A stretch of 59,001 nt of DNA, filler included. It is 4 parts of 4 records of this genome, joined end to end, with 100 filler letters (N's around TTAATTAATTAA, not from the genome) between each part and the next. Parts side by side here need not be neighbours in the genome. Positions count along the whole stretch, not along the records: positions 1 to 25,165 come from SRR2962707_4747; 3 more parts are not named here. One strand, given 5' to 3'. A model generated the notes under the pieces. It saw only the letters and a list, made by a program, of their open reading frames with translations. It was not told the origin of the DNA and did no database searches. The position numbers were made by a program, and so were the translations under genes. Below, one piece after another: positions 9,661 to 30,231 of the stretch. The first letter of the stretch is position 1. Each line of letters starts with the position of its first letter.

Positions 9661-10392
9661 ATGACCAACACGCAACGCATTGCGCTTGTGACCGGCGCCA
9701 ATAAGGGGATCGGGTTTGAAATTGCCCGCCAGCTCAAGGCGGCGGGTGTCACCATTATCGTAGGCGCCCGCGATGGTGAACGTGGCAAGACGGCGGCTGC
9801 AGCGCTGTCGAGCACGGATGAGCAGGTCGCGTTCATCCAGATCGATGTGACGGACGCAGCCAGCATTGGGGCCGCTGCGGCCGAGATCGAGGCCCGGCAC
9901 GGGCGGCTGGACATCCTGATCAACAATGCCGGGATCGTCGACGCGGCAGACGGCCCGCCCAGCGTGTCGGATATCGATGCGGTGAGACGGCTGATGGAGA
10001 CCAATTTCATCGGCGCGCTGAGCGTGACCCAGGCCATGCTGCCGCTCTTGCGCAGGGCGCCGGCCGCCCGGATCGTCAACCTGTCCACGACATTGGGTTC
10101 GCTGACGATCAATGGCGACCCCAGCTCGCCCTATTATGAGGCCCGGCTGATTGGCTACAACGCTTCGAAAGCGGCGCTGAACATGCTGAGCGTGCAACTG
10201 GCCGCAGAGCTGGCGGGAAGCGGAATCGCGGTCAATGCGGTGGCGCCGGGCTATGTCAAAACCGACCTGACGGGGCATGCCGGCTTCATGAGCGCTGAAG
10301 AGGGCGCCAGGCTGCCGGTGCAATATGCCTTGCTGGGTGCAGACGCGGTCTCCGGGCGCTTTGTGGCGCCAGACGGGGAAACACCCTGGTAG
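9661..10392 (+). CDS. Short-chain dehydrogenase/reductase (carbonyl reductase-like)
   Basis: TGANKGIG, NNAG, YNASK and PGYVKTDL; divergent from the TetR gene. Confidence 0.92.
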   Translation: MTNTQRIALVTGANKGIGFEIARQLKAAGVTIIVGARDGERGKTAAAALSSTDEQVAFIQIDVTDAASIGAAAAEIEARHGRLDILINNAGIVDAADGPPSVSDIDAVRRLMETNFIGALSVTQAMLPLLRRAPAARIVNLSTTLGSLTINGDPSSPYYEARLIGYNASKAALNMLSVQLAAELAGSGIAVNAVAPGYVKTDLTGHAGFMSAEEGARLPVQYALLGADAVSGRFVAPDGETPW

Positions 10393-10431: not shown

Positions 10432-11784
10432 TCAGGCTTGCGCGGCGCGCCTTGGCTCGTTTTCGACGCGGTGCTCGAAATCAGCCAGGGCCATGGGCCG
10501 ACCGTAAAGATAGCCCTGGAACTGGGTGCAGCCGGCCTGAGCGAGCAGGGTATGCTGTTCCATGGTTTCGACGCCTTCGGCCAGCACGTCGTGATCGAGA
10601 TCGTGGCCGATGCGGATGACGTTCTTGACCAGCGAGGTGCTCTGGCTGGTGCTGGCGGCGTCCTGAACAAAGCCGCGGTCAATCTTGATTTGCTGGATGG
10701 GCAGCCGGCGCAGATAGGACAGGGACGAAAAGCCGGTGCCGAAATCATCGAGCGAGATGGTGATGCCCAGCGCGCGCAGGCGGTGGAGGCGGGCGATCAC
10801 CAGCTCCATATCGGTGACCAGAATGCTCTCGGTCAGTTCTAGGATCAGCTGACGCGGGTTGGCGCGGGTCTTGACCAGCGTGTCGCGCACAAAATTCTCG
10901 AAATCGGCATGCATGAGCTGGCTGGCGCTGACATTGACCGACAGGGTGAGGTGCCGAAATTGGGGAATCTTGCCCCATTGCGCCAGGGTGTAGCAGCCTT
11001 TTTCGAGCACCCAGCCGCCAATGGCGATCATCAGGCCAAGCTTTTCGGCCTGCGGGATGAACTCGATCGGCGATACCGTGCCGCGTTGCGGGCTGTTCCA
11101 GCGCAATAGCGCCTCGGCGCCAATGGTGGCGCGGGCCAGATCGACCTGTGGCTGGAAAACCAGCTGGAACTCGTCATTCCACAGCGCGGCCATCAGATCG
11201 CGGCTGAACCTGTCCTTGCGGACAAACTCGGCCTGCATGGCATGGACGCTGGCTGCCAGCAGCGTGGTGGCGAAGATTGCATTGGCCCAGGTGCCGCCCA
11301 CGCGCAGCGTGTCGGGCATGGTCAGGACATAGGGGGAGGCCAGCGGTGCGCTGGCGAGCACGACAAAGGCCAAAAGGCACAGGCCGATCAGGGCGAGCTG
11401 GATGCGCGAATTCTCGCGCTGGTAATTGAGATAGCCCAGAGCGGCGATTACCAGCAGATAGAGATGGCTGACGCGGGGTACCTCGGCAGTGGGAACATCG
11501 AGCACCAGGCCCATGATGATGGCGATGAGCATCAGGGCGGCCTGAGCGGCCAGAAGGCCGAAGGTGAGATGGCCACGCCGGATCAAGCCATAGATGGCCA
11601 GCCCGGTGGCAATGATGGCGATGTCCAGCGCCACCACGCCCCACCAGCCGATGACCGCAAAGACTACGGCCCAGCCCAGACCAATGGCCGCTATGGCCAG
11701 CGAGCCATAGCGATAGGCAACGACCATTCGGGTTGAATAGTGGCTGCTGGCTGCCGAAGAGGGGCCTAGCGCTGATCTTGCCAT
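10432..11784 (-). CDS. Membrane-anchored EAL-only c-di-GMP phosphodiesterase
   Basis: About six TM helices, then EALLRW, NVS, ELTES, DDFGTGFSSL, KIDR, EGVE and QGY; start ATG 11784 with GGAG RBS. Confidence 0.88.
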   Translation of the reverse strand: MARSALGPSSAASSHYSTRMVVAYRYGSLAIAAIGLGWAVVFAVIGWWGVVALDIAIIATGLAIYGLIRRGHLTFGLLAAQAALMLIAIIMGLVLDVPTAEVPRVSHLYLLVIAALGYLNYQRENSRIQLALIGLCLLAFVVLASAPLASPYVLTMPDTLRVGGTWANAIFATTLLAASVHAMQAEFVRKDRFSRDLMAALWNDEFQLVFQPQVDLARATIGAEALLRWNSPQRGTVSPIEFIPQAEKLGLMIAIGGWVLEKGCYTLAQWGKIPQFRHLTLSVNVSASQLMHADFENFVRDTLVKTRANPRQLILELTESILVTDMELVIARLHRLRALGITISLDDFGTGFSSLSYLRRLPIQQIKIDRGFVQDAASTSQSTSLVKNVIRIGHDLDHDVLAEGVETMEQHTLLAQAGCTQFQGYLYGRPMALADFEHRVENEPRRAAQA

Positions 11785-12023
11785 ACATGCTCCGAGCGCG
11801 GCATCAGGTGACGCCATGGTGCACGATAGCGGCGGCGTTGTTAAGAACACGTGTGCCGGCCTGCGCTGTGGCGGGGAGGTTCTGCCTGGTATGCGCATCA
11901 ATCGACGCCGGATATGGAACGAGCATTGACCCGGTTCGTTGGTGTGCTCACGGTTGCAGCATTCGGCCCCGCGTCGTTGCGCCAAGCGACTGAATTCCCC
12001 TGATGACAAGAGGTAACAAGCCG

Positions 12024-14281: not shown

Positions 14282-15322
14282 ATGGGAATGACGAAGACAG
14301 TTGTATCGATCGAGGGCGAGAGCTTTTTGGTCAATGGCGAGGTGCTGCATCAGGGGCAGAGCTATAAGGGCCACAGCATTGAGGGCCTGTTGTTCAATTC
14401 GCGCATGGCCAATGCCATGTCGGACGATGAGAACCCCAGCACGCGTGGCGTATGGGCCTATCTCGATGGTCCGTTTTCGGCCGAGTGCAATGTCAGCGAG
14501 TTCATCGCCCAGCTGCCCGAATACAACCGGCACGGGCTCGATGCGGTGTGCATCAACATGCAGGGCGGCAGCCCGCAGGGTTATAGCTGGGTGCAGCCCT
14601 GGGAAATCACGGCGTTCAACGCCGATGGTTCGATCAAACCAGCCTGGCTGGAGCGTCTGGACCAGATCATCACCGCCTGTGACGAACTGGGCATGGTTGT
14701 GGTGCTGGGCCTGTTCTACTGGAAGCAGACGCGCGTCTTCAAAGACGAGGACGCGGTCAAGGCAGCGGTCACCAATACGGTCGACTGGCTGGCCGAGCGC
14801 GGCGCGCGCAATGTGATCATGGAAATCGGCAATGAGGTCGACCTCAAGTTCGCCCATGAGATCATTGAGGCGGCGCGTGGCGATGAGCTGATCAAGCTGG
14901 CGCAGTCGCATTCCGAAGGGCGGTTTGACACGCCGGCCAAGCGCCTGCTGGTCAGCACCAGCCTGGCATTCCCCAACCAGCCGACTGATGCGCATATGGC
15001 CTGCGCCGACTTCCTGTTGCTGCATGGCAATGCCACGCACCACCCTGACAGCGTGCGCCTGCTGGTGTCGCGCTACCGGGCGAACCCGGCCTATCGCGGC
15101 CAGCCGCTGGTGTTCAACGAAGACGACCATTTCGATTTCGACAAGAGCGACAACAACATGCTGGCAGCCATCGAGATGCATGCTGGCTGGGGCTATTTCG
15201 ACTACCGCATGAGCCGCGAAAACTACGAATATGGCTATCAGTCGCTACCCGTGGACTGGTCGATCTCGACCGACCGCAAGAAGGGGTTCTTCAACCTGCT
15301 CAAGCAGGTCACCGGCAAGTAG
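14282..15322 (+). CDS. Cytoplasmic clan GH-A-like (TIM-barrel) putative glycoside hydrolase
   Basis: MEIGNE (NE acid/base-like) and PLVFNED (nucleophile-like) motifs, WLERLDQIITACDELGMVVVLGLFY helix-strand pattern, no signal peptide; family assignment is inference. Confidence 0.6.
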   Translation: MGMTKTVVSIEGESFLVNGEVLHQGQSYKGHSIEGLLFNSRMANAMSDDENPSTRGVWAYLDGPFSAECNVSEFIAQLPEYNRHGLDAVCINMQGGSPQGYSWVQPWEITAFNADGSIKPAWLERLDQIITACDELGMVVVLGLFYWKQTRVFKDEDAVKAAVTNTVDWLAERGARNVIMEIGNEVDLKFAHEIIEAARGDELIKLAQSHSEGRFDTPAKRLLVSTSLAFPNQPTDAHMACADFLLLHGNATHHPDSVRLLVSRYRANPAYRGQPLVFNEDDHFDFDKSDNNMLAAIEMHAGWGYFDYRMSRENYEYGYQSLPVDWSISTDRKKGFFNLLKQVTGK

Positions 15323-15337
15323 GCTGAAGCATCTGTC

Positions 15338-15646
15338 ATGGCCTATGTCGTTGTCGTTGATCTGACACTCGCGCCCCAGCATCGGGGGGATTTCATGCCC
15401 CTGATGCTGGCCAATGCCACAGCCTCGCTCGCCCATGAGCCCGGCTGTCGGCAGTTTGACGTCTGTGTGTCCGTGCAGGACGCCAATAGCGTGCTGCTCT
15501 ACGAAGTCTATGACAGCGCCGCCGCTTTCCAGACACATCTGGAAAGCCCGCATTTCCAGAGTTTTGACCAGAATAGTGCCGCCATGGTGACCCACAAGAG
15601 CGTGCGCAGCTACCTGTTGCCGGATACATCGGCGGCAGGCGCATGA
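15338..15646 (+). CDS. ABM/LsrG-like dimeric alpha-beta barrel protein
   Basis: EPGCRQFDV, LLYEVY and AFQTHLESPHF motifs. Confidence 0.88.
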   Translation: MAYVVVVDLTLAPQHRGDFMPLMLANATASLAHEPGCRQFDVCVSVQDANSVLLYEVYDSAAAFQTHLESPHFQSFDQNSAAMVTHKSVRSYLLPDTSAAGA

Positions 15647-16929
15647 GGCTGGGGGTCATTGCCGACGATTTTACCGGCGCCAGCGACATTGCCAATGTCA
15701 TTGCCCGGACCAGCGGGGATGGACGGGCATTGCGGGTGGCGCAATATTTCGCGCTGCCCCAGCAACCTGCCGATGATGCCGTCGATGTTGGCGTCGTCTC
15801 GCTGAAGTTCCGCTCCCTGCCGGCTCAAGAGGCGGTCGCGCAAGCGCTGTCTGCGCTGAAGTGGCTGCAGGCGCAGGGCGCAAGCCAGATCATCTACAAA
15901 TACTGTTCAACTTTTGACTCCACACCGGCAGGCAATATCGGCCCGGTGGGGGAGGCACTGGCGGCAGCGCTGCAGGTCAAGGGTGTTGTGGCCTGTCCGG
16001 CGTTTCCGCAAACCGGGCGCACGGTCTATCAGGGCCATCTGTTCGTGCAGGGAAAATTGCTGCATGAATCGGGCCTTGAGAACCATCCGTTGAACCCGAT
16101 GACCGATGCGTATCTGCCGCGCTGGCTGGCGCAGCAGACGCAAAGCCCGGTGGGGTTGATTGATCGTTCCAAGATCGTTGCGGGGGCGGCGGCAGTTGCG
16201 GCGGCCCTGGGTCAGGCCGCAGCGGAAGGGCAGGTGCTGGTCATCGCCGATGCCATTGATGATGGCGATCTGGAGGTGCTGGCGCAGGCGGTGGCTGACG
16301 CGCCCCTGGTCACAGGCGGTTCGGCAATCGCGGCGGGTCTGGCGCGGGCGCATATCAGGGCCGGTGGCGGCAAGCCGAGCGGCACGCTGGGCGTGGGCAT
16401 CCAAGGTCCTGCCGTGGTCCTGGCGGGCAGCTGCTCGCGCGCAACACGAGAACAGGTCGCGCAATTCAGCGCAGACCATCCTGCATTGCTTGTTGAGGCC
16501 GCCGCGCTGATGGGCGGGCGGATCACGCCCGAAGACGCGTTGGCATTTGTGAAGGCCCAGGGCGGTCGGACCCCGATCATCTATTCTTCAGTAGCGCCCG
16601 ATCTGCTCAAGCAGGTGCAGACACAGTTTGGCGGCGCTGTGCTGGCCGAGCGGCTGGATCGTTTCTTTGCCGATACGGCGCGGCTTGTGGTGGCCAATGG
16701 CGTGCGGCGGCTGGTGGTCGCGGGTGGTGAGACCTCGGGGGCGGTTGCGTCCAGTCTGGGGCTCACCGACGTCGAGATTGGACCCGAAATAGCGCCCGGC
16801 GTACCGGTGCTGGTGGCGCAGGGTGAAACGCCGCTTGCTCTGGCGCTCAAGTCGGGCAATTTTGGCACCGCCGATTTCTTCGCACGAGCGCTCGATCTGA
16901 TGGCGCACCCAGAACAGGATCCGAGATGA
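15643..16929 (+). CDS. otnK: 3-oxo-tetronate kinase (four-carbon acid-sugar kinase family)
   Basis: ADDFTGASD, KYCSTFDSTPAGNIGPV, HPLNPMTD, GSCS, GGETSG and LKSGNFG. Confidence 0.88.
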   Translation: MRLGVIADDFTGASDIANVIARTSGDGRALRVAQYFALPQQPADDAVDVGVVSLKFRSLPAQEAVAQALSALKWLQAQGASQIIYKYCSTFDSTPAGNIGPVGEALAAALQVKGVVACPAFPQTGRTVYQGHLFVQGKLLHESGLENHPLNPMTDAYLPRWLAQQTQSPVGLIDRSKIVAGAAAVAAALGQAAAEGQVLVIADAIDDGDLEVLAQAVADAPLVTGGSAIAAGLARAHIRAGGGKPSGTLGVGIQGPAVVLAGSCSRATREQVAQFSADHPALLVEAAALMGGRITPEDALAFVKAQGGRTPIIYSSVAPDLLKQVQTQFGGAVLAERLDRFFADTARLVVANGVRRLVVAGGETSGAVASSLGLTDVEIGPEIAPGVPVLVAQGETPLALALKSGNFGTADFFARALDLMAHPEQDPR

Positions 16930-17561
16930 GCCAAGCCGAGCTACGAGCGCAGATTGTCGAGTTGTCGCGCTCCCTGTTTGAGCGTGGCTATTCCGTGGGC
17001 TCGTCGGGCAATATCAGCGTGGCAGTTGAGGGGGGCGGCTTTCTGGTGACGCCAACCAATAGCTGCCTGGGTCGGCTTGATGTAGACGCGATCTCGCTGC
17101 TCGACGCGGACTGGAACCATATCGGAGGCGATGCGCCATCCAAGGAAGTGTTTCTGCACCGCGCTTTTTACGAATCCCGGCCCGGCACGGGTGCGGTGGT
17201 GCATCTGCATTCGACCTATGCCACGGCGCTATCGTGTCTGAGTGATACCGACCCGTCGGACTGCATTCCGCCGATCACACCCTATGTGGTGATGCGCGTG
17301 GGGACGGTGCGAATGGTGGATTACGCCATGCCGGGTGACCCGGTGACCGGCGATCTTATTCGCGGGCTCGATGGACAGGCGGCAGCGGTTCTGCTGGCCA
17401 ATCATGGACCCGTGGTGGCTGGCGCCAATCTGACAGCGGCGGTCTATGCGGCCGAAGAGCTGGAGGAAACGGCCAAGCTGGTGTTTCTGATGCGTGGTCT
17501 GGCATCACGACAGTTGACGGCCGAGCAGGTGGCGGCGCTGAACGCGCGGTTCAAGCGCTAG
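16926..17561 (+). CDS. otnC: 3-oxo-tetronate 4-phosphate decarboxylase (class II aldolase family)
   Basis: GSSGNIS, TPTNSCLG, PSKE, HLHS, TPYVVMRVG, LANHGPV and EELEETAKL; ATGA overlap with otnK. Confidence 0.88.
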   Translation: MSQAELRAQIVELSRSLFERGYSVGSSGNISVAVEGGGFLVTPTNSCLGRLDVDAISLLDADWNHIGGDAPSKEVFLHRAFYESRPGTGAVVHLHSTYATALSCLSDTDPSDCIPPITPYVVMRVGTVRMVDYAMPGDPVTGDLIRGLDGQAAAVLLANHGPVVAGANLTAAVYAAEELEETAKLVFLMRGLASRQLTAEQVAALNARFKR

Positions 17562-17562
17562 G

Positions 17563-18288
17563 CTAGATCTGGGTCAGTCCGAGCCGTTCAAGCAATTCGA
17601 CCAGCATCTTGCCGGCACGCCGCCGATGCTCTTCGTGGATGGCGCGGGCTTCCTGCGGTTTGCCATCGATTATGGCCTGCACCATGGCCTCGTGCTCACG
17701 GTTGGAGTCGGTGGGGGTGGGCCGCAGGCGCAAGGTGAGCAGACGGGCGCGATGGGCCTGATCCCATAGCTGGGCGACCATCTGGATCAGGCGCTGATTG
17801 CCGCTCAATTCGACCAGGGTGAGGTGGAACCGCTCATCGGCAGCAGCCCAGGCCTGCAGGTCTTCCTGCTCAAGCGCCTTGTCCATGTCGCGGACGGGAG
17901 CCTGCAGGGCCGAAATCTGGCGATTGCTGAGGCCACGCTGCGCCACGGCTTCGGCGGCGGCGCCTTCCAGGGCCGTCATGATTTCATAGATATCGCGCAT
18001 GTCATCGGCGGAAATCGGCAGCACGCGCATGCCGTGTCGCGGCCGGATTTCGACAATGCCTTCCTGACGCAGGCGCACCATGGCCTCGCGTACAGGGGTG
18101 CGGCTCATGTTCAGCCGGGCGGCTGCTTCGAGCTCAAGCATCTGTGCGCCGGCAGGCAGGGTGCCATCCAGAATGAGCTGCTTGAGCTGCACATAGGCCT
18201 GATCAGCCTGACTGCTGCGATCCGCCGGCTTGCCGGGGGCGTCAGGCCGCAAAGACGGCGATCGTTCGGCCTTGCTGATCTGACTCAT
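17563..18288 (-). CDS. GntR/FadR-family regulator (FCD domain)
   Basis: LNMSRTPVREA HTH; ADERFH, SGNQRL and SNREH FCD motifs. Confidence 0.92.
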   Translation of the reverse strand: MSQISKAERSPSLRPDAPGKPADRSSQADQAYVQLKQLILDGTLPAGAQMLELEAAARLNMSRTPVREAMVRLRQEGIVEIRPRHGMRVLPISADDMRDIYEIMTALEGAAAEAVAQRGLSNRQISALQAPVRDMDKALEQEDLQAWAAADERFHLTLVELSGNQRLIQMVAQLWDQAHRARLLTLRLRPTPTDSNREHEAMVQAIIDGKPQEARAIHEEHRRRAGKMLVELLERLGLTQI

Positions 18289-19279
18289 AGACGGCGTCCT
18301 CTATCCGGAGATTGTTCAAGTATGCGGCGGCCAGGTTTACAGGGGGCAAATCGCCCAACAGGCTATCTACAACTGCGCGTTGTAACCGAAACACGCAGTC
18401 ACCGCCAAAATCTTCGTCGCGCCAAGTGTAAGGCAGCGGCTGGGACTGGTTGGTGCCTAGTCTGCGAATACTGATTTCACCGTCGCCATTCAAAGCAATA
18501 CTGCCGTACTCGGCCTCGATCAGCATTTCGCCCATGGTCAGCCGGCGGTTTTCCGCAGGGTGATCGGACAGGCGGTTGGCGTCCAGGGTGGCCAGTACGC
18601 CATTGTCCATTTCAAGCACGACCAGCCCGGCATCCTCGCCGGCAATGACCGGATTGAGGCGCCGCAGCTTGGCCGAGACCGTGCGGACCTCACCGAACAG
18701 GAAGCGGAACACATCGACAATGTGAATGCCGGTTTCGTGAACCATGAAGCGCTTCATGTCCCGGAAATAGGGCTGGCGGGCCAGATAGGCATCGGGGCCG
18801 CCACCATCGCCCGGGCGCAGCCGGAAGGTGGCGCTGAACACGGCGCCGAGCTCGCCGCTGGCCAGCAGCATGCTGATGGCGTGATACCAGGGCTGGAAGC
18901 GGAAATTCTCGTGTACGATCAGCTTGATGTCGGCGGCGCGGGCGATCTCCACGGCCTGTTCAGCGGTGGCCAGATCGTCGCAGAAGGGCTTTTGGCAGAT
19001 GACGTTGATACCGCGTGCTGCGGCAGCCTTGATGGCCTGCAGATGCACGGCCGGGGGCGCGATGACATCGAGCAGGTCGATTGTCACATTGTCGAGCATG
19101 GCGTCGAGCTGGTCGTAGGCCTGCCCGATCTCGAACTGCCCGGCTGTCTGTTGGGCGAGCGCTGCATCGCGGTCGCAGGTTGCGACCAGCGTGACTTGAG
19201 GTATCCGCCGCCAGGCGCGGTGGTGAAACTGGCTGAAATAGCCATTGCCCAGCGTGGCGACCCGCAGCTTTTGCGTCAT
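18242..19279 (-). CDS. Gfo/Idh/MocA oxidoreductase, D-apiose dehydrogenase-like subfamily
   Basis: GNGYFS, ICQKPF, VHENFRFQP, QPYF, GIHIVD and RLNPVIAGED motifs. Confidence 0.85.
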   Translation of the reverse strand: MTQKLRVATLGNGYFSQFHHRAWRRIPQVTLVATCDRDAALAQQTAGQFEIGQAYDQLDAMLDNVTIDLLDVIAPPAVHLQAIKAAAARGINVICQKPFCDDLATAEQAVEIARAADIKLIVHENFRFQPWYHAISMLLASGELGAVFSATFRLRPGDGGGPDAYLARQPYFRDMKRFMVHETGIHIVDVFRFLFGEVRTVSAKLRRLNPVIAGEDAGLVVLEMDNGVLATLDANRLSDHPAENRRLTMGEMLIEAEYGSIALNGDGEISIRRLGTNQSQPLPYTWRDEDFGGDCVFRLQRAVVDSLLGDLPPVNLAAAYLNNLRIEDAVYESDQQGRTIAVFAA

Positions 19280-20376
19280 GCGTATTCCTGTTCCAATGCG
19301 GCTTCGACTGCGTCGGCAATGGCTGATGTGCCATCCTTGCCGCCGATTTCATAGGGCGCAAGGCCAGCCTGGAAGGCGCGGTCGACGGCATCACGCAATT
19401 GGCGGCCGGCAGCAAGTGCGGCGGGGTTGGTGTAGCGGGTGCCCAGCCATTCGAGCATCATGGCGCCCGACAAGATGGCTGCGGTGGGGTTGGCCATGCC
19501 CTTGCCGGCGATATCGGGAGCCGAGCCATGGCTGGGCTGGAACACGGCATTGTTGATGCCGATATCGGCGGAGGGTGCAAAGCCCATGCCGCCCATCAGG
19601 CCCGCTCCCAGATCGGACAGGATGTCGCCGAACATGTTCTCGGTGACCATGACGTCAAAGGCCCATGGCTTCTTGATCATGTTGAGGGCGGTGGCGTCGA
19701 CATAGGCGTGTTCCACCGCGATGTCAGCGAAGCCGGCATGGCGTTCATCGAAGATCTTGCGGAAGAAGGCCAAGCTGGCAAACACATTGGCCTTGTCGAC
19801 GCAGGTCAGGCGACCCGGGGTACCGGTCTTCTTGCGCTCGCGGGTATAGGCAAAGGCGAAGTCGAACAATTGCTCGCAGATGGCGCGGGTAATCACCATG
19901 GTATCGCGGGCTTCGCGATCATCGATCACGACGCCTTCATTGCGCAGGGCGAACAGGCCTTCAACCGATTCGCGGATGAGCACGAAATCGATATCGGCGC
20001 CGCGTGCATCGCTGAGTGCACTGGGAATGCCGGGAATGGAGCGGATCGGCCGCACACCGGCAAAAAGCTGAAATTCGGTGCGCAGGTCAAGCTGGGGCGC
20101 GATTTCGGTACCGTCGGGATAGCGCAGTTCGGGCCAGCCCATGGCGCCCAGCAGGATAGCGTCGGCGCTGCGGCAGCTGTCCATGGTGGCATCGGGCAGG
20201 GCTTCGCCGGTCTTTTGATAGTGCAGGGCACCCGCATCGCAGTGTTTGAAGCCGAGCGTGAAGCTGTCCGAGCGCGATGCCAGTTGTTCAAGGAGCCGGA
20301 CGGTCGGCGCGATAACCTCGACACCAATCCCGTCGCCGGGGAGAACTGCAATCTCGAAATGTGTCTTGGTCGTCAT
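19276..20376 (-). CDS. Isocitrate/isopropylmalate/tartrate dehydrogenase-family enzyme (atypical)
   Basis: PGDGIG, VDKANV, NMFGDILSD and HGSAPDIAG; RESVEGLF has Phe where the family has a catalytic Tyr; start ATG 20376. Confidence 0.9.
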   Translation of the reverse strand: MTTKTHFEIAVLPGDGIGVEVIAPTVRLLEQLASRSDSFTLGFKHCDAGALHYQKTGEALPDATMDSCRSADAILLGAMGWPELRYPDGTEIAPQLDLRTEFQLFAGVRPIRSIPGIPSALSDARGADIDFVLIRESVEGLFALRNEGVVIDDREARDTMVITRAICEQLFDFAFAYTRERKKTGTPGRLTCVDKANVFASLAFFRKIFDERHAGFADIAVEHAYVDATALNMIKKPWAFDVMVTENMFGDILSDLGAGLMGGMGFAPSADIGINNAVFQPSHGSAPDIAGKGMANPTAAILSGAMMLEWLGTRYTNPAALAAGRQLRDAVDRAFQAGLAPYEIGGKDGTSAIADAVEAALEQEYA

Positions 20377-21374
20377 GTTCTGTCCAACGCTGAAAGAAGG
20401 GGGCCGATGTCGTCCCCGTAATGAATCGGCGGCAGTCCCCTGACGGGCGTGTCTGTCGCGATGATGCGGTCGCCCAGAAGGCAACCAAGGAAAGCGGTGC
20501 GCATGTCCGGGCCGCCAAAGGCGAGCGAGGAAATGTTGCGCAGGGTTCTGGCGGGTGAGCCGTCCAGGTGTGGACGCGCCATGCGGTGGTTCTGGAAGGC
20601 GTCCTCAACCGTGGCGAGGTGCTCGGGGTCGCTCTCCTCGAGCATGCGCTCGACGCCCTCTGGTGCGACCCGGATAACGCGATTGGAGACGATGCTGGTG
20701 ATCCACAGCCCGCCGGTTTGATCGAGGACCAGACCATCGGGGAAGTCACCGGGGCCCAGCTGCGCCATGGTCTGCGGATCAGAGAGGGTGGCATCGGCCC
20801 CTACTGCAAAACGGGTGACGCGGCGGGCGAAGGTCTCGTTTACATAGGCAAAGGCGCCATCAGCCGAGAAAGCCAGCTCATTGGTATAGCCCAGGCCATC
20901 GGCAACAATGCGGGCAGCCCCATTCTCGATGACCGCGATAAAGCCGGTATTGGCGTCGGGGCGATAGTCATCGGCGCGCGGCACCTTGCGCGTGGAAACA
21001 GTGAACCAGATGCGGTCGGCGCGGTCGCGAATGACGAAATTGGCGGGGGGCAGGGGCACGCCATCGATGTGGGTGCATAGCGCTTCGCTGCTGCCATCGG
21101 GGAACAGGCGGAATATGCCGCCGGTCTCGGCGCCCAGATGGGCCACCAGAAAGCTGCCGCCGGGTTCGAGCGCAATGCCGTTGGGACGCAGCTCGATTGG
21201 ACTATCGGCGAATTGCACGCGACGCACGCTATCGTCAGCATCGACAATGGCCACACCACCGGCACCCTGCCAGTCCGAACAGAACAGTAGCCCTGACTGG
21301 TGGCTCAGCACGCATTCAGGCCGGACCAGGCCGGTTCCATATGTACGGGTTATGTTGAGGCGACCAGTGAGCAC
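20373..21374 (-). CDS. SMP-30/gluconolactonase-family protein
   Basis: RPECV, PNGIAL, YTNELAFS, YVNET, FPDGL and SSLAFGGPD beta-propeller motifs. Confidence 0.88.
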   Translation of the reverse strand: MLTGRLNITRTYGTGLVRPECVLSHQSGLLFCSDWQGAGGVAIVDADDSVRRVQFADSPIELRPNGIALEPGGSFLVAHLGAETGGIFRLFPDGSSEALCTHIDGVPLPPANFVIRDRADRIWFTVSTRKVPRADDYRPDANTGFIAVIENGAARIVADGLGYTNELAFSADGAFAYVNETFARRVTRFAVGADATLSDPQTMAQLGPGDFPDGLVLDQTGGLWITSIVSNRVIRVAPEGVERMLEESDPEHLATVEDAFQNHRMARPHLDGSPARTLRNISSLAFGGPDMRTAFLGCLLGDRIIATDTPVRGLPPIHYGDDIGPLLSALDRT

Positions 21375-21670: not shown

Positions 21671-23008
21671 ATGTTTGATTTTACCAGTGGCAAGCCTGCG
21701 AAGGGACGCAGTCTGCAGCGCCTCAAGCTTGCCTTGATGTCGTCGGCCCTGCTGGGTCTGGCGGCAAGTTCTGCCGCCACGGCACAGAATATCTCGTTCT
21801 GGACACAGCCGCAGGGCGAACTGCTCGGCTACCAGGATCTGTTTGGCGAATTCGCCAATGAGTTCAAGGCTGAATCCGGTGTTGATGTCTCGGTCGAGGT
21901 CATCAACTGGGGCGTGGCCTTCAATACCTGGCTGACCGTTGCCCAGGGCGGCGCGGCACCTGACTGCGCCGATATGTACTGGCTGCACTCCTATTCGGGT
22001 ATCGGTGGCGACAAGTACGGTCCGATGCCGATCAATGAATACCGCGATCAGTGGCCAAATCTGGAAGATGAATTCTATCCGGGCAGCCTGCAGGATGTGC
22101 AGTGGGCCGGCGATTTCTACGGTATTCCGTGGCGCGTCGATATCCGGCCCCAGATGTACAATACCGAGATGTTTGCCGAAGCTGGTCTGAGCGCAGCGCC
22201 AGACACCTGGGCTGAAATCGTCGAGATGGCCAAGGCACTGACGGTGCGCGACGACAATGGCAATGTAACCCGCTGGGGTTTCTCGGCTGGTCCGAACAAC
22301 CCAGCCCAGACCCTGTTGCCCTATTACTGGCAGGCTGGTGGCGCGATTCTGAGCGAAGACGGCACCCAGGCCAATATCGATAATGAAGCGATGCGCACGG
22401 CGCTGAAGTTCCTGCAGGACTTGGTCTGGGAACACGAAGTGATGTCGCCGGAATCCTTCGAGAAGGGCGTCGATCCTCTGGACGGCTTTGCATCGGGCAC
22501 GGTAGCCATGGTTGGCAGCACCCCGATCGCCTGGGCTTCGCAGATGGAGCGGGAATATCCCGAGCTCGATGGCAAGTGGGCGATGGCGATCAATGCCATG
22601 GGTCCGGTCAATCGCGACTCCTATAGTGGCGCCGGTTACTGGGGCGTGCTGCGTGGCACCGAGAATGTCGACGCCTGCGTGGACTGGATCAAGTTCCTGT
22701 CACGCGAAGAAAACATGCAGCGTCTGAGCGAATTCAGCGGTGCAGCCAGCCCGCGCCGTGCGGTGATGTCATCGGCATCGTGGTCCGACAGCCAGTGGAA
22801 GGTTGCTGCAGCCGAAACGCTCGACTATGGCCACACTTCCCAGCATGCGACCTCGGTGTGGGGCGCGCTCGCCTCTCCAGAGCCCGGCGCTGTGATCTAT
22901 GATCTGGTGTATTCCACCGTGATCGTGCGCGAAGATATCGACGCTGCTGTCGAACAGGCTCAGGCTCGGCTGCAGGAAGAACTCGATCGGGCCAATCGCC
23001 CACAGTGA
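21671..23008 (+). CDS. Carbohydrate ABC transporter substrate-binding protein (CUT1)
   Basis: Signal peptide (…SAATA-Q); YGIPW, YNTEMFAEAGL and PDTWAE; GAGGA RBS. Confidence 0.9.
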   Translation: MFDFTSGKPAKGRSLQRLKLALMSSALLGLAASSAATAQNISFWTQPQGELLGYQDLFGEFANEFKAESGVDVSVEVINWGVAFNTWLTVAQGGAAPDCADMYWLHSYSGIGGDKYGPMPINEYRDQWPNLEDEFYPGSLQDVQWAGDFYGIPWRVDIRPQMYNTEMFAEAGLSAAPDTWAEIVEMAKALTVRDDNGNVTRWGFSAGPNNPAQTLLPYYWQAGGAILSEDGTQANIDNEAMRTALKFLQDLVWEHEVMSPESFEKGVDPLDGFASGTVAMVGSTPIAWASQMEREYPELDGKWAMAINAMGPVNRDSYSGAGYWGVLRGTENVDACVDWIKFLSREENMQRLSEFSGAASPRRAVMSSASWSDSQWKVAAAETLDYGHTSQHATSVWGALASPEPGAVIYDLVYSTVIVREDIDAAVEQAQARLQEELDRANRPQ

Positions 23009-23016
23009 TCCTCCCA

Positions 23017-23045
23017 GGGCTGGCGCGGTCATGCCGCGCCAGCCC
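23017..23045 (+). other. Intercistronic stem-loop after the SBP gene
   Basis: Perfect 12-bp stem GGGCTGGCGCGG / CCGCGCCAGCCC; typical stabiliser or attenuator of SBP mRNA. Confidence 0.65.
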
Positions 23046-23077
23046 ATTTGACTGACACGAAGTGACGGATCGCGCTG

Positions 23078-23977
23078 ATGAATCGCCAGAAACTCGTCTT
23101 TTGCTACCTCATGGTGACCCCGGCGCTGCTGCTGACGGCGGTCCTTGGCATCTATCCCATGGTCTTCTCGCTCTGGATGGGCTTTGTCGAATACGACCTG
23201 CTGCGCATCCAGGACTTCGGGACCCCCTTTGTCGGTCTCGACAATTACATTCATGTGTTTTCCGATCCCAAATTCGTGCAGACGGTGGTCAATACCGTGC
23301 TGTTCACCGGCATTGCCGCCGGCGGGGTGGTGGTGATCGGCCTGCTGGTATCGCAGGTGCTCAATGCCGAGTTCCGGGGACGAACCGCGTTGCGCATGCT
23401 GTTCTGCGTGCCCTGGTTTGTGCCGCCCGCGGTGGCGTCGGCGATCTGGATGTGGCTGCTCAATACTGAACGCAGCCCGATCAATTTCCTGCTTCAGGAC
23501 ATGGGCCTGACCACGGGCAACATCAAATTCCTGACCGATCCAACGGCCTGGGGGCCGTTCAGCATTCCCATGCTGGCGATTTCAGCGGTGCGTATCTGGA
23601 ACGGTCTGCCATTCGCGATCATCTTTCTGCTGGCCGCGCTGCAGTCGATCCCCAAGAGCCTGTATGAAGCCGCCGAAATGGATGGCGCCACGCTGCTGCA
23701 ACGCTTCTGGTTCGTGACGCTGCCCATGTTGCGTCCGGTGCTGGTGATCCTGATCACGCTGCTGGTGATCGGTGGGCTGGGATCGTTTGAAATCAACTAC
23801 ATCATGACCGGTGGCGGGCCGCAGAACCTGACCAACATCATGGCGGTCTATTCCTATCAGCAGGGCTTCTCGTTCTTCCGCTTCGACCTGGCGTCGGCGG
23901 CGAGCGGGGTGATCCTGATCCTGACCGGGTTTGTCTGCGTGTTCTACATCCGCGAACAGGTCAAGAGAGCTCAATAA
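23078..23977 (+). CDS. Carbohydrate ABC transporter permease
   Basis: FVGLDNY and the EAA loop LYEAAEMDGA; TGGGP. Confidence 0.92.
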   Translation: MNRQKLVFCYLMVTPALLLTAVLGIYPMVFSLWMGFVEYDLLRIQDFGTPFVGLDNYIHVFSDPKFVQTVVNTVLFTGIAAGGVVVIGLLVSQVLNAEFRGRTALRMLFCVPWFVPPAVASAIWMWLLNTERSPINFLLQDMGLTTGNIKFLTDPTAWGPFSIPMLAISAVRIWNGLPFAIIFLLAALQSIPKSLYEAAEMDGATLLQRFWFVTLPMLRPVLVILITLLVIGGLGSFEINYIMTGGGPQNLTNIMAVYSYQQGFSFFRFDLASAASGVILILTGFVCVFYIREQVKRAQ

Positions 23978-24861
23978 TGACCGCTGCCATCGTCGACCTT
24001 CGCCGCCGTATCAGCAATATGGCCCCATCGGATCTGCTCACGCGCTTCGTTGTGCTGGTCATCTCGACCGCTGTGCTGATCTATGTGCTGATGCCCGTGT
24101 TCTGGATGCTCAAGAGCTCGTTCCAGACCACGGCGGAAATCCGCGCCATGCCGCCCGTATGGTTGCCCAGCGCGCCGTCCTTTGACCCCTATGTGACAGC
24201 CAACAAGCTGATCCCGGTCTGGCGCTATCTGGCCAATTCGCTGTTCGTGTCGGTCACCGCTGCGGTGATCTCCACGGCGATAGCAGCGTCAGCGGCCTAT
24301 GTGCTGGCGCGGTTCCGGTTTCCCGGCGCTACGCTCATTCTGGTGCTGATCCTGCTGACCAATCTGATCCCGCAGATCACCCGCGTGTTTCCGATCTATT
24401 TCTTCATTCAGGATCTCAAGCTGATCAACACCTATGCCGGGCTCATTCTGGCCTATGTCAGCTTCTCGGTGCCCTTTGCGGTGTTGCTGTTGCGCGGCTA
24501 TTTTGAAACCAGCGCGCCGCCAGAACTGGAAGAAGCGGCCATGATCGACGGGTGCAGCCATTTCTCGGCATTCTGGCGCGTGATCATTCCGGTGTCGCTG
24601 CCCGGTATTGCCGCGGTTGCCATCTTCACCTTCCTTAATGCCTGGAACGACTTTTTGTGGGCCAGCCTGCTGCTCAGCGATGGTGCGCTCAAGACCATTC
24701 AGGTGGGTATTGGCGACTTTGCCTCTGAAGGCGGCGGTGTGCAGTACATGAACGCGTTCATGGCCGCCTGTGTGGTGACCACAATTCCAGCGCTGATCCT
24801 GTTTGTGTTGATGCAACGCTGGCTGGTCGGCGGGCTGACCGCCGGTTCGGTAAAGAGCTGA
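23977..24861 (+). CDS. Carbohydrate ABC transporter permease
   Basis: [12 protein letters not shown] loop, AWNDFLW and GLTAGSVK. Confidence 0.92.
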
Positions 24862-26046: not shown

Positions 26047-26592
26047 TCAGTAGGTATCGTTGCCGGTTCGGCGCGGCAAGTCCAGAGGTGCGGGCCCGGG
26101 GCGGACATCAACCGGTTCATCACCGGCGGGCCCGCCATGGTCACCGACGGACGGTGGCGCGGTCACCCGGGTGAGAATATTGGCAATGCTGACTGCCGTT
26201 GTATAGAGGGAAATGGAGACAATCAGCAGTACCGGCTGCACAAAGGCCACAAAGCCCGGAATCTCCGCGTTCCCGGTCATACTCAGGATCAGGATGATGG
26301 CCGGCCCAAGGACCACGAACAGCGTCACGGCAATAAAAAACACAATCCGCTCTTTGTAGCGCCCCAGATCGCGATTGGTCACCAACCCCAGCACAAACTT
26401 GCCGATAGCCAGGCCGGCCAGAATCGCCGCAGCAATACTCAGGTCGGGCCGCATCAGGGACTGGTACAGGTTGCCATCCCAGAGCCGCTGCATGGCAATG
26501 ACAAGAAACGGAAACAGTACGAACAGTATGTCGGCGTATGTGCCATACATCATGCTCAGGGAATAATGTTCCTGTTTTTGGTTATCGCTCAT
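26047..26592 (-). CDS. Four-TM membrane protein of unknown function
   Basis: Four hydrophobic segments; start overlaps the kinase stop by 11 nt; AAGGA RBS. Confidence 0.75.
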   Translation of the reverse strand: MSDNQKQEHYSLSMMYGTYADILFVLFPFLVIAMQRLWDGNLYQSLMRPDLSIAAAILAGLAIGKFVLGLVTNRDLGRYKERIVFFIAVTLFVVLGPAIILILSMTGNAEIPGFVAFVQPVLLIVSISLYTTAVSIANILTRVTAPPSVGDHGGPAGDEPVDVRPGPAPLDLPRRTGNDTY

Positions 26593-29500
26593 TGGCCTGT
26601 TCCTTTGTGGTTTTCGACGACCTCTGGTGACCCTCAAGGGCCCGGTCAATCATGGCGTTCAGGATGGTCAGTTCCTGTCGAATCATCCCCCTCTCTCCGG
26701 GGCTTGAGCGTACAGATCGCTCAAGTATCCCTGCCTGTTCTGTCATCAACGGATAGCCCATGGCCCCGGCGGTGCCCTTGATCTGATGGCTCTCAGACTG
26801 CAATTGCTGCAACTGTCCCTGGGCCAGCGCGGCTTCCATGCGCCGCTTTCGCTCGGCCAGGCTATCGAGGAAACGGTTCACCAGCGGACCAATGTCATCG
26901 TCAACCGCCTCGCCGACCCATTGTTCCACCGGCAGATAGCGATCCAGCAGGGCCTGCAGGTGGGCATGGTCAATGGGCTTGTTCAGCACCCCGTCGCACC
27001 CGGCCTCCAGCAAGGCTTCATTCTCTGCCTGATCACCGGCGGTAAAGGCAATGATCGGCCTCCGGAAGCCCGCCTGGCGCAAAAGCCGGGTGGCCGCAAC
27101 GCCGTCCATGCCGGGCATGTGGCGATCCATAAGCACCAGTTTCACGGTTTCCGACAGGGCCCGGCGAACCGCCTCTTCCCCGTTGGTCACCAGCAAGGGC
27201 TCGGCGCCGGTGCGGCGGAGCATCCGCTCCACCAGCCCACGGTTATCATCGTTGTCTTCGGCCACCAGCACCTTGCCGCTGTATCGGTGACCGGAACCCA
27301 CCGCCGTTTCCGCCGACAACGCCAGGTAACGGGCCAGCACCTCGTAAAAGCGCTGCTTGTCGATGGGTTTGGCCAGGTGATCATTGCATCCCGCCAGACG
27401 ATATTCAGCGATATCCTCGGCCATGACATTGGCCGTAAGCGCAACCACCGGGGTGTTAACACCTGCTTCCCGCAACGCCAGGGTGGCATCCCGGCCATTC
27501 ATCACCGGCATCTGGATGTCCATCAGAATCAGATCGAAGTGCTCGCGGGTGGCGCGCTCCAGGGCTTCCGCGCCATTACTGACATGCACCAGCTCGGCAC
27601 CGGTGCGCCCCACCAGCAACGACACCAGCCGGCGGTTTACATCGTTATCCTCGGCACAGAGGATGCGGCCCGACAACCGGGGCGCCATGACCATGGCAAT
27701 GGCCCGGCGCCGTTGGCTGAATTCCGAGGCATCCCGCAGGAAATGAACCTGCGCGAGTTCACCGGTGCTGATGCACACTTCAAATTCACTGCCTTCACCA
27801 TAGGTGCTGGACACCCGGATATCGCCGCCCAGCAGTTCCGCCAGCCTCCGGGATATACTGAGGCCGAGCCCCGTGCCGCCATACTGGCGGGAAATTGCGG
27901 TGCTGCCCTGGGCAAAGGGGTCAAACAGACGGTCCAGCTGTTCCGGCTTCATGCCAATCCCGGTATCCACCACCCGGGCGTAAAGCTTCTCGGCGTCCCG
28001 ATCACAGCGAATAATCAGGGAGATAGACCCATTTTCCGTGAACTTCAGGGCATTTCCGCACAAATTAATGATAATTTGTCGGTAACGGGTTGGATCGGTC
28101 CGGATCTTCTCGGGCAGGGGATAATCGCAGATGATACTGAAATCCAGGCCCTTTTCCCGGGCCCGGGGGGCGAAGAAGGCACGGATTTCATCCAGCAACT
28201 CCGGCAGATTGACCGGCACCACATCAACATCCAGCTTGTTGGCGTCGATCTTTGAGTGGTCGAGGATATCGTTCACCAGCTCCAGCAGGTGACGCCCGCT
28301 GCGAACCACCGTTTCAGCACTGCTGCGTTTCTCGGTTTCGTTCAGATCCGGGTCCAACAGGGTTTCGCCATAGCCGATGATTGCCGCCAGCGGGGTCCGG
28401 ATTTCATGACTCATATTGGCCAGGAACTGGCTCTTGGCCTGAGCGGAATTCCGGGCCAGCTCTTTTTCCAGCCGCTCCTGCTCCCGCTCCCGCTCGATCT
28501 GCAGGCGCTGATGGCTCTCAGTGGCGTCAATACAGGTGCCTTCGAGATGCATGGGCAGGCCCTCGGCATCATACACCGTGTGCAGGGAGATAGTGGCCCA
28601 GCGTTCCTCGCCCTGACGGGTCAGGTAACGAGCTTCAATACCCTTCACCGTACCCCGGGCCTCCAGTTGCTCGACCACCAGGCGCCGCAACCGCTCATCG
28701 GCAATGCAGGTTTCCAGCACATCCGGGTTTCGCGCCAGCAGCTCACGGCTGCTGCTGTAGCCCAGCAACTCGGCCATGGCCGGGTTGGCGGTTACAAACC
28801 GCCGTTCCGGTGACATCTGGAACACGCCCTCAATGGCGTTATCAAACAGTGACTGGTAACGCCTCAGGTTCGCCAGAGCGCGCTGGTTCCAGGCCAGGGC
28901 CTCGCCCTGAACCTGCTTGATTCGGTCAGCCAGGGCAAAGGAAAACAGGATGATCTGGGCCGTCAGGCCGAACTGTGGCGAATAGCTGGTAAAGGTATTC
29001 AGCGGCAGGTAACCCATCACCGTCAGCGCATAGATACCAAACCCGATCAGGGCCAGGGTCCAGGCAAAGAAATAAGAGCGTGCTGCCGGGTTGTAATAGC
29101 GCCAGGACAGATAACTGACCACAATCAGAATGATACTGAGCAGAATCGAGCCGACCACAATCCATTCCATGGCCACCGAATAGGGCATGAAAAACGACAA
29201 ACCAAAGGTGGTGACGACAGAAGTCAGACATAACCGGAGTACATGATCCAGATCGGGCGAGCGTTGCCGGGTTTCCAGCAGCGAACGGGCCATTAACAGG
29301 CCAAAGAACCAGGTCAGAATAATCTGGAAATGGAGGTATTCCTTGTTGAGCAAGGCTGGCCGGCTATCCAGCAACTGAACCCCGTGCACCTGTTCGGTAC
29401 CGATGAATACCGCCGCACATACCAGGTAGAGCACGTAGTAGATGTTGCTGCGCTCCCGCACCGACACCGCCACAAACAGGTTGTAAGCCAGGATAGCCAG

Positions 29501-30130: not shown

Positions 30131-30231
30131 AATGTGATCTCCGCGCGGGTAGCTGCGTGCTTTATCGTTTATTGTCAGCACTCGTCACTTTAGCCGTTCA
30201 CACGCTTTTTCACACCCCGGGGTCACCTGAA

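Follow-up and report, generated by a model that had tools for sequence, protein, structure and literature searches.

A Phe/Gln-type subfamily of the isocitrate/isopropylmalate dehydrogenase superfamily, probably part of a new version of the four-carbon acid-sugar pathway

Introduction

The window analyzed here is a stretch of DNA of 59,001 nucleotides made up of four joined parts, of which positions 1 to 25,165 come from the record SRR2962707_4747. It carries a gene for a protein of the Iso_dh family (PF00180), the family of isocitrate and isopropylmalate dehydrogenases, in which the catalytic Tyr and a conserved Glu are replaced by Phe and Gln, respectively. Nearby are genes for the 3-oxo-tetronate kinase OtnK, for OtnC, and for a small ABM-domain protein. 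To our knowledge, the Lys–Tyr pair is treated as universal in metal-dependent β-hydroxyacid oxidative decarboxylases, and Aktas and Cook are said to have set out in 2009 that the Tyr is the acid protonating the enol. The enzymes carrying Phe and Gln form a clade of their own, and the enzyme of the window (the Phe-type enzyme) probably feeds the established four-carbon acid-sugar pathway through a new route.

The canonical tetronate pathway comprises LtnD or DenD, OtnI, OtnK, and OtnC (Zhang et al., 2016, as described in the accessible part of PMC13753588). Recently, two OtnI-less routes were reported by one group, both in 2026. According to the accessible parts of these articles, Ltn3D, a short-chain dehydrogenase/reductase (SDR), leads to 3-oxo-tetronate (PMC12994016), and ApnO, a protein resembling ketol-acid reductoisomerase (KARI), also acts on D-erythronate and together with OtnK and OtnC forms dihydroxyacetone phosphate (DHAP) (PMC13753588). 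An initial lead that placed ApnO in the Iso_dh family proved wrong, its fold being KARI-like as far as that article was accessible (PMC13753588). In the same accessible parts, neither article mentions an Iso_dh-family enzyme; in PMC12994016, the terms isopropylmalate, isocitrate, and PF00180 have 0 occurrences. A literature search, whose coverage stopped short of most subscription papers and of supplements, revealed no connection between the Iso_dh family and OtnK or DUF1537 and no description of the Phe-type clade.

The Phe-Type Gene and Its Catalytic Residues

The gene encodes 366 residues (Table 1) and lies on the minus strand, the only detail that a preliminary description of the locus had left unsaid. 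A longer version of the reading frame, started at TTG, is not needed; the ATG is preferred because it overlaps the stop codon of the upstream gene. The protein matches PF00180 with 292.6 bits (Pfam gathering score, 27) and reaches none of the NCBIfam equivalog cut-offs: it scores 247.4 bits against 353.2 for leuB (TIGR00169) and 265.8 against 470.4 for the TTC/tartrate-D-malate equivalog (TIGR02089), with the homoisocitrate and isocitrate models far below. Likewise, three further members of the clade reach none of these cut-offs. An AF2 model built from a 72-row alignment (pLDDT 96.4) superimposes on closed 3-isopropylmalate dehydrogenase (IPMDH) of Thermus thermophilus (2y41) with TM 0.89, rmsd 1.8 Å, and 38% identity, and on tartrate dehydrogenase (TDH) of Pseudomonas putida (3flk) with TM 0.90; identity to the IPMDH and TDH structures is 37–38%. 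As modeled, the fold is confidently canonical. Homologues are often named "3-isopropylmalate dehydrogenase" in JGI records, a public name that is very probably wrong for proteins of the Phe type.

Residue equivalences were taken from a phmmer alignment to chains of T. thermophilus IPMDH, numbered after the printed 1dpz alignment. Phe142, the last residue of the motif RESVEGLF (residues 135–142), aligns with Tyr139, and Gln280, in FQPSHGS (residues 279–285), aligns with Glu270, bearing out the preliminary description, which had read Phe for the catalytic Tyr and FQPSHGS in place of the usual EPxHGS. Its further statement that the substrate arginines, the catalytic Lys, and the metal-binding aspartates are retained also stands for all seven residues: R99, R109, and R135 correspond to Arg94, Arg104, and Arg132, K195 to Lys185, and D227, D251, and D255 to Asp217, Asp241, and Asp245. 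Among the nine catalytic positions, only the Tyr and the Glu are thus changed. The nucleotide-site motif HGSAPDIAGKG.ANP is identical to that of T. thermophilus IPMDH, and its Asp-Ile within APDIAG is what we take to be the determinant of NAD specificity in IPMDH. For Glu270, an E270A mutant of T. thermophilus IPMDH exists, by entry title, as PDB 4wuo.

Comparison with characterized relatives sets this residue pattern in context. With LeuB (T. thermophilus IPMDH, 2y41/4f7i), the Phe-type enzyme shares the fold, the Arg, Lys, and Asp residues, and the nucleotide-site motif; it differs in the replacement of Tyr139 by Phe, Glu270 by Gln, and Asn102 by Gly, and in its context, which consists of sugar-acid genes rather than leu genes. 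TDH (3flk) and Escherichia coli DmlA have loops of similar length, and the basal Tyr/Gln relatives described below read RENxEGxY like DmlA, whereas TDH and DmlA keep both the Tyr and the Glu. The fold offers a precedent for chemistry without decarboxylation, in that TDH can oxidize (+)-tartrate without decarboxylating it. The non-decarboxylating isocitrate dehydrogenase of Hydrogenobacter thermophilus, from the same superfamily, reportedly stops at the oxo acid, a finding attributed to Aoshima and Igarashi in 2008.

A Clade with Fixed Phe and Gln

Both altered motifs, as RES.EGLF and FQ[PA].HG, occur in 120 of the 120 best database clusters (63–92% identity), and because they are shared throughout, the signature can be regarded as neither a product of chance nor a sequencing error. 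For a broader comparison, 189 sequences were aligned: the query, 84 proteins from genome loci, 96 of the 150 best representatives at 50% identity (the other 54 fell outside a length of 320–460 residues), and eight close homologues. Two isocitrate dehydrogenase (IDH) loci, of E. coli and of the nearest genome (G001), had no tblastn match at 1e-20 and lie outside this set. At the nine catalytic positions, 79 of the aligned sequences read RRRYKDDDE and 72 read RRRFKDDDQ. Tyr and Glu are each present in 100% of the canonical sequences (n = 73), and Phe in 100% and Gln in 95% of the clade members (n = 73).

The preliminary description had raised the question of whether the Phe defines a clade, and in a FastTree phylogeny, calculated with both variable columns (Phe/Tyr and Gln/Glu) masked, it does: 82 of the 83 Phe sequences fall into a single clade of 107 tips (support 0.917), within which a core clade of 87 tips has Phe in 80 and Gln in 78. 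The opposite half of the tree holds E. coli LeuB, G001 LeuB, and E. coli DmlA, and the 366-residue protein is outside the clade that joins the two LeuB proteins (support 0.995). The lone Phe exception, P0226, sits inside the DmlA group, and the non-Phe sequences inside the core clade number seven, some of them fragmentary. As judged from alignment and phylogeny, the Phe142/Gln280 enzymes are a distinct subfamily of the isocitrate/isopropylmalate dehydrogenase superfamily rather than LeuB or tartrate dehydrogenase. Its distribution is patchy: of 201 genomes sampled from the same class, 17 contain a homologue at E ≤ 1e-90.

A small basal group (L053, L055, P0129, P0135, P0136, and P0144) retains Tyr while already having Gln; because this sister group combines the two, the change to Gln seems to predate that to Phe. 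In one of its members, L055 (Gaiella), the gene comes after a sugar ABC transporter and a PF01370 oxidoreductase. Several database proteins were set aside as irrelevant to the Phe-type question, namely fusions with an M20 peptidase (P0257), a fungal transcription-factor domain (P0244), GntR (P0189), and the IDH C-terminal domain (P0242 and P0270).

Positions specific to the clade (73 versus 73 sequences) are R85, D88, G89, E91, Q95, G107, L121, F142, A203, L231, D271, Q280, and W310. R85 is 100% conserved in the clade, and where the clade has G107, 97% of canonical sequences have Asn. These positions include no newly conserved Tyr, His, or Lys, so that, at the sequence level, another residue seems not to have taken over from the missing Tyr. 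The loop that contains Glu87, Leu90, and Leu91 in T. thermophilus IPMDH is three residues shorter and more polar in the 366-residue protein, the alignment of Gln95 within it being ambiguous between two programs; a loop of this kind would fit a hydroxylated side chain.

The Gene Cluster in the Window

The Phe-type gene is the middle one of three genes joined by 4-bp ATGA overlaps, with a lactonase gene upstream and a Gfo/Idh/MocA oxidoreductase (GFO) gene downstream (Table 1). A plus-strand operon, in which ABM, OtnK, and OtnC are likewise joined by 4-bp overlaps, converges on the regulator gene that ends the minus-strand operon. OtnK and OtnC both exceed their equivalog cut-offs, and this downstream half is what the cluster shares with the canonical tetronate pathway; the upstream half differs, as the Iso_dh and ABM folds are non-homologous to LtnD/DenD and OtnI. 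A tblastn search with the G001 proteins as queries (E ≤ 1e-5, at least 100 residues) detected neither OtnI nor LtnD nor DenD homologues in the window.

Table 1. Features of the locus, in positions of the window
Feature	Position	Strand	Remarks
Phe/Gln-type Iso_dh (PF00180) gene	19276..20376	minus	ATG 20376 to TGA 19276, 366 aa
Phe142 codon TTC	19951..19953 (19953-19951 as read)	minus	aligns with T. thermophilus IPMDH Tyr139
Gln280 codon CAG	19537..19539 (19539-19537 as read)	minus	aligns with T. thermophilus IPMDH Glu270
SMP-30/gluconolactonase-type lactonase	20373..21374	minus	PF08450, 87.6 bits; stop overlaps Iso_dh ATG
Gfo/Idh/MocA oxidoreductase (GFO)	18242..19279	minus	PF01408/PF22725/PF02894; ATG overlaps Iso_dh stop (ATGA)
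GntR/FCD regulator	17563..18288	minus	PF00392 + PF07729; last gene of minus-strand operon
Cytoplasmic clan GH-A (GH5/GH140-like) protein	14282..15322	plus	first gene of plus-strand operon
ABM-domain protein, 102 aa	15338..15646	plus	PF03992, 64.5 bits; stop overlaps OtnK ATG
OtnK, 3-oxo-tetronate kinase (DUF1537 family)	15643..16929	plus	NF043035, 498.5 bits (cut-off 350)
OtnC	16926..17561	plus	NF043034, 294.1 bits (cut-off 250)
ABC (CUT1-type) sugar transporter	21671..24861	plus	PF01547 + PF00528; divergent
ABC binding protein	21671-23008	plus
ABC permeases	23078-23977, 23977-24861	plus

The closest solved structures to the GFO protein are those of the series 5uhw-5uib, with 5uhw, an oxidoreductase of Agrobacterium radiobacter, nearest (2e-43). 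An accessible part of the literature gives 5UI9 as an oxidoreductase from A. radiobacter used for molecular replacement, with no function stated there (PMC7535918). As a clue to the substrate, the binding protein of the ABC transporter was discarded, its best match (5ysb, 2.4e-24) being too distant.

The clan GH-A protein, whose ATG start was inferred from homologues of 346 residues, is itself 346 residues long and is a (β/α)8 protein with a weak match to PF00150 (27 bits) as its sole family match. Its homologues number more than 5000, every one named "hypothetical." The gene adjoins GFO-Iso_dh-Amidohydro_2 in two Bryobacterales loci (L050 and L051) and is found on the same contigs as the closest Phe-type homologues. 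The protein may release the sugar of the pathway from a glycoside. The nature of this sugar could not be read from its AF2 model (pLDDT 89), for which GH5 mannanases (Z 22.6) and GH140 apiosidase (Z 22.5) tie and do not discriminate.

Further out, positions 9661-10392 (plus strand) encode a short-chain dehydrogenase whose ORF cluster is represented in 6 of 33 long Phe-type loci (defined below). Judged by eye from the translations, the gene cluster is flanked by two large ORFs of signaling type, by a 525-residue membrane protein with an EAL-like C-terminal region (10432-12009, minus strand) and by a 1199-residue hybrid sensor kinase-like ORF (26582-30181, minus strand).

Conserved Neighborhood in Other Genomes

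Related loci were gathered from genomes (80 in all), and among them identity breaks from at least 46% in the clade to at most 40% for ordinary LeuB. Phe-type loci number 54, the window included, and 33 of these are "long," reaching at least 4 kb on both sides; the gene counts that follow were obtained by tblastn. A GFO gene, usually directly downstream of Iso_dh, is found in 20 of the 33 long loci, and a lactonase gene in 20 as well, from any of three unrelated folds (SGL in 10, metallo-β-lactamase in 8, and Amidohydro_2 in 2); 18 loci have both. ABM genes occur in 20 loci, GntR in 19, OtnK in 16, and OtnC in 14. The ABC transporter of the window is swapped elsewhere for tripartite ATP-independent periplasmic (TRAP) systems (9/33), tripartite tricarboxylate transporter (TTT) systems (4/33), or other ABC systems. 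By contrast, 17 long control loci around Tyr-type homologues gave a count of zero for every one of these genes, except for one TTT match.

Every OtnK locus (16 of 16) has an ABM gene, and four further loci have ABM without OtnK. OtnI-like genes are confined to L017 and L024, of which L024 is an OtnK locus (1/16), and LtnD-like genes to L014 and L038, both OtnK loci (2/16); by tblastn, DenD was found in none of the Phe-type loci. These counts bear on the two roles that the preliminary description had proposed for the enzyme, either the release of an enediol that would remove the need for OtnI or the replacement of LtnD/DenD. Replacement of LtnD/DenD is very probably right, given LtnD in 2 and DenD in 0 of the 16 OtnK loci. 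OtnI indeed appears dispensable, but the Phe-type enzyme alone is probably insufficient to make it so, as an ABM gene accompanies OtnK throughout.

Individual loci, among them compact versions on annotated plasmids, illustrate how the module varies. For example, a Sulfitobacter plasmid has aldolase-otnK-lactonase-ABM and three TRAP genes divergent from Iso_dh-GFO-GntR, the whole module sitting between an insertion sequence element and an integrase. An Agrobacterium plasmid (L095) has a sugar ABC transporter, a PF01370 oxidoreductase, GntR, Iso_dh, ABM, a HAD type II hydrolase, an aldehyde dehydrogenase, otnK, and otnC; Sinorhizobium fredii GR64 p64a (L102) carries this form without otnK and otnC. 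A link to the teu genes for the uptake of bean exudate is a speculative idea; the annotation of the S. fredii plasmid contains no teu names. More generally, in the rhizobial plasmid variant (L095, L102, L010, and L015) the PF01370 oxidoreductase, HAD type II hydrolase, and aldehyde dehydrogenase replace GFO and lactonase, the transporter is a monosaccharide-type ABC system, and many carriers come from Phaseolus nodules. The CUT2 binding protein of the Agrobacterium locus was rejected as a substrate clue, its best match (2ioy, 4e-23) again being too distant. Also rejected was an apparent 709-residue "Iso_dh-GFO fusion" in L014 (9994-12123), an out-of-frame open stretch that runs over Iso_dh into GFO in high-GC DNA; it is an artefact because Pfam detects GFO domains alone in the ORF.

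For the TRAP binding proteins of Phe-type clusters, the closest solved structures are 4pdd, 4pdh, 4nq8, and 4p9k. The group to which these entries belong is described, in the accessible part of the source, as pantoate- or erythronate-bound (PMC11668362).

In the nearest genome, G001, an orthologue with 99% identity lies in the same gene arrangement. This genome also has a separate true LeuB (448.2 bits, above the cut-off of 353.2), a canonical LtnD-OtnI-OtnK cluster (scores of 435, 340, and 579), and DenD (386). No ABM gene was found in the loci fetched around the LtnD-OtnI-OtnK cluster of G001. Because G001 keeps the true LeuB together with the canonical LtnD-OtnI-OtnK and DenD, its Phe-type cluster is a second, separate system.

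The ABM Partner

ABM proteins are often oxygenases, and the window's ABM protein has a sole NCBIfam match, to LsrG (NF007791). On this model, three ABM proteins from the clusters, that of the window first, score 27.1, 40.3, and 37.2 bits, all far under the cut-off of 135. In the reverse direction, 24 ABM proteins were collected from the clusters, and 23 of them (one was left out for its length) served to build a hidden Markov model (HMM); against this model, E. coli LsrG obtains 62.4 bits and the quinol monooxygenase YgiN 21.0, and E. coli LsrG aligns to it collinearly and free of gaps over 83 positions. By BLASTP, 21 of the 23 proteins are nearer to LsrG than to YgiN. The cluster ABM proteins are, by these profile comparisons, distant homologues of LsrG.

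LsrG is annotated as (4S)-4-hydroxy-5-phosphonooxypentane-2,3-dione isomerase, an enzyme that shifts a carbonyl and a hydroxyl group in a phospho-pentanedione. Beyond the ABM fold, it shares with the cluster ABM proteins its length (96 residues) and the motif FDV...LYE.Y...F..H, and its transposition of carbonyl and hydroxyl beside a carbonyl is the type of reaction that OtnI performs on 2-oxo-tetronate. The cluster ABM proteins differ from LsrG in lacking an lsr context, and their substrate would be a carboxylate rather than a phosphodione. As a distant homologue of a ketol isomerase that is present in 16 of 16 OtnK loci, the ABM protein is a better candidate than the Phe-type enzyme for the step from the 2-oxo acid or enediol to the 3-oxo acid. 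It is thereby a candidate ketol isomerase and a candidate non-homologous replacement of OtnI.

Discussion

We propose that the Phe-type protein acts on acid sugars as a Mg/NAD-dependent 2-hydroxyacid dehydrogenase and that, together with the ABM protein, it would replace LtnD/DenD and OtnI upstream of OtnK and OtnC. This proposal is held tentatively, its chances being somewhat short of even; in the following scheme we infer the substrate and the regiochemistry, as well as the cofactor and the part played by the ABM protein. GFO and lactonase, or an aldehyde dehydrogenase in the rhizobial variants, would turn an imported sugar into an acid, and in other genomes the acid would be imported by TRAP or TTT systems. 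The Phe-type enzyme would bind the (2R)-2-hydroxy acid through Mg2+ or Mn2+, held by the three aspartates, and through the Arg triad; Lys195 would deprotonate the 2-hydroxyl group, and the hydride would pass to NAD+. In the absence of the Tyr, which normally protonates C3, the product would be released as the 2-oxo-3-hydroxy acid or its enediol without Tyr-dependent protonation of the enol. The LsrG-like ABM protein would then shift the carbonyl to C3; the resulting 3-oxo-tetronate, or a close homologue of it, would be phosphorylated by OtnK and decarboxylated to DHAP by OtnC. The variants with a neutral-sugar ABC transporter and aldehyde dehydrogenase fit a constant carbon count up to OtnK and support this scheme. 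Ltn3D and ApnO, which also deliver a 3-oxo acid sugar to OtnK and OtnC without OtnI, may serve as precedents, although their folds and mechanisms are unrelated to those of the Iso_dh enzyme.

Several observations weigh against this 2-hydroxyacid dehydrogenase scheme. The clade keeps all three substrate arginines and adds the invariant Arg85, as in a site for dicarboxylates; since the Arg triad binds a dicarboxylate in every characterized family member known to us, a monocarboxylic tetronate is not an obvious ligand. All 12 of the long TRAP/TTT loci retain GFO and lactonase, which would not be expected for the import of a plain tetronate and suggests that the acid taken up has a hemiacetal left to oxidize. 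In G001, the canonical genes for L-threonate and D-erythronate would make a second route redundant. Since 17 of the 33 long loci lack OtnK and OtnC, the Phe clade may not have one function. Finally, the low LsrG scores of the ABM proteins and the frequency of oxygenases among ABM proteins count against the isomerase role.

Some of these observations are better explained if the enzyme is a true β-decarboxylating dehydrogenase acting on a 2-hydroxy-3-carboxy acid sugar, with the enediol(ate) released and tautomerized by the ABM protein to the 3-oxo acid. This mechanism, the main rival of the scheme though unlikely in our estimation, corresponds to the first alternative of the preliminary description: without the Tyr, C3 of the enediol(ate) would not be protonated after the loss of CO2. 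The substrate would be a dicarboxylate produced by GFO and lactonase from an imported carboxy-sugar or uronic-type acid, e.g., a 3-C-carboxy branched sugar acid. Full conservation of the Arg triad, the Lys, and the Asp triad, with Arg85 in addition, agrees with such a substrate, and GFO and lactonase in every TRAP/TTT locus would be expected for the conversion of a hemiacetal acid to a dicarboxylate; the shorter, more polar loop also counts in its favor, and steering the product to the 3-oxo isomer would give a selective reason for the fixed Phe. However, we know of no 2-hydroxy-3-carboxy acid-sugar substrate of this kind, and the literature search turned up none. The variants with a neutral-sugar ABC transporter and aldehyde dehydrogenase offer no obvious source of the second carboxylate, and the solved relatives nearest the TRAP binding proteins form a monocarboxylate group. 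A quite improbable alternative is the direct oxidation of the 3-hydroxyl group of a tetronate, with C1 as the β-carboxylate, to 3-oxo-tetronate, the Phe blocking decarboxylation to dihydroxyacetone and the ABM protein having some other role, e.g., as a mutarotase, tautomerase, or oxygenase. Such an activity would explain both the dispensability of OtnI and the removal of the acid that completes decarboxylation, and the SDR enzyme Ltn3D performs the same chemistry in another fold, according to the accessible part of its description (PMC12994016). Its substrate, however, would lack a metal-chelating α-carboxylate, yet the three aspartates and the arginines are unchanged, and the constant pairing of ABM with OtnK together with the likeness to LsrG points to a needed isomerase step.

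An ordinary LeuB or TDH/DmlA isozyme that tolerates the change from Tyr to Phe is very improbable: the identity and structural similarity of the Phe-type enzyme to IPMDH and TDH and the JGI names would agree with such a role, but the enzyme scores below all equivalog cut-offs, falls outside the LeuB and DmlA clades, lacks a leu-operon context, and coexists in G001 with a bona fide LeuB. Its patchy distribution also speaks against an isozyme, and replacement of the Tyr by Phe in E. coli IDH abolishes most of the activity. Least credible of all, a catalytically dead or regulatory paralogue, comparable to the non-catalytic subunits of eukaryotic NAD-IDH, would account for the loss of a key catalytic residue. 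Against it, all other catalytic and ligand-binding residues are conserved across distant phyla, the Phe itself is invariant rather than drifting, and no catalytic Tyr-type paralogue adjoins a Phe-type gene.

Significance

A large natural clade in which Phe and Gln are fixed and the remaining catalytic residues are kept provides a ready-made test of the role of the Tyr. If the proposed dehydrogenase function is correct, the Iso_dh enzyme and its ABM partner would constitute another non-homologous, OtnI-less feed into OtnK and OtnC, beside the Ltn3D and ApnO routes, and an LsrG-like ABM protein would gain a role outside autoinducer-2 processing. Should the unlikely decarboxylating mechanism apply instead, the Phe/Gln clade would represent a natural "half-reaction" β-decarboxylating dehydrogenase that hands a free enediol to an LsrG-like tautomerase. 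This would amount to a new two-protein division of labor in the isocitrate/isopropylmalate dehydrogenase superfamily and to a new catabolic route for a carboxy-sugar, e.g., a 3-C-carboxy sugar from plant cell walls. Because plasmids of legume symbionts and of marine roseobacters carry the module, its substrate may matter ecologically. The Phe-type group is a widespread, uncharacterized, and very probably mis-annotated subfamily whose altered catalytic pair probably serves in a new version of the four-carbon acid-sugar pathway.

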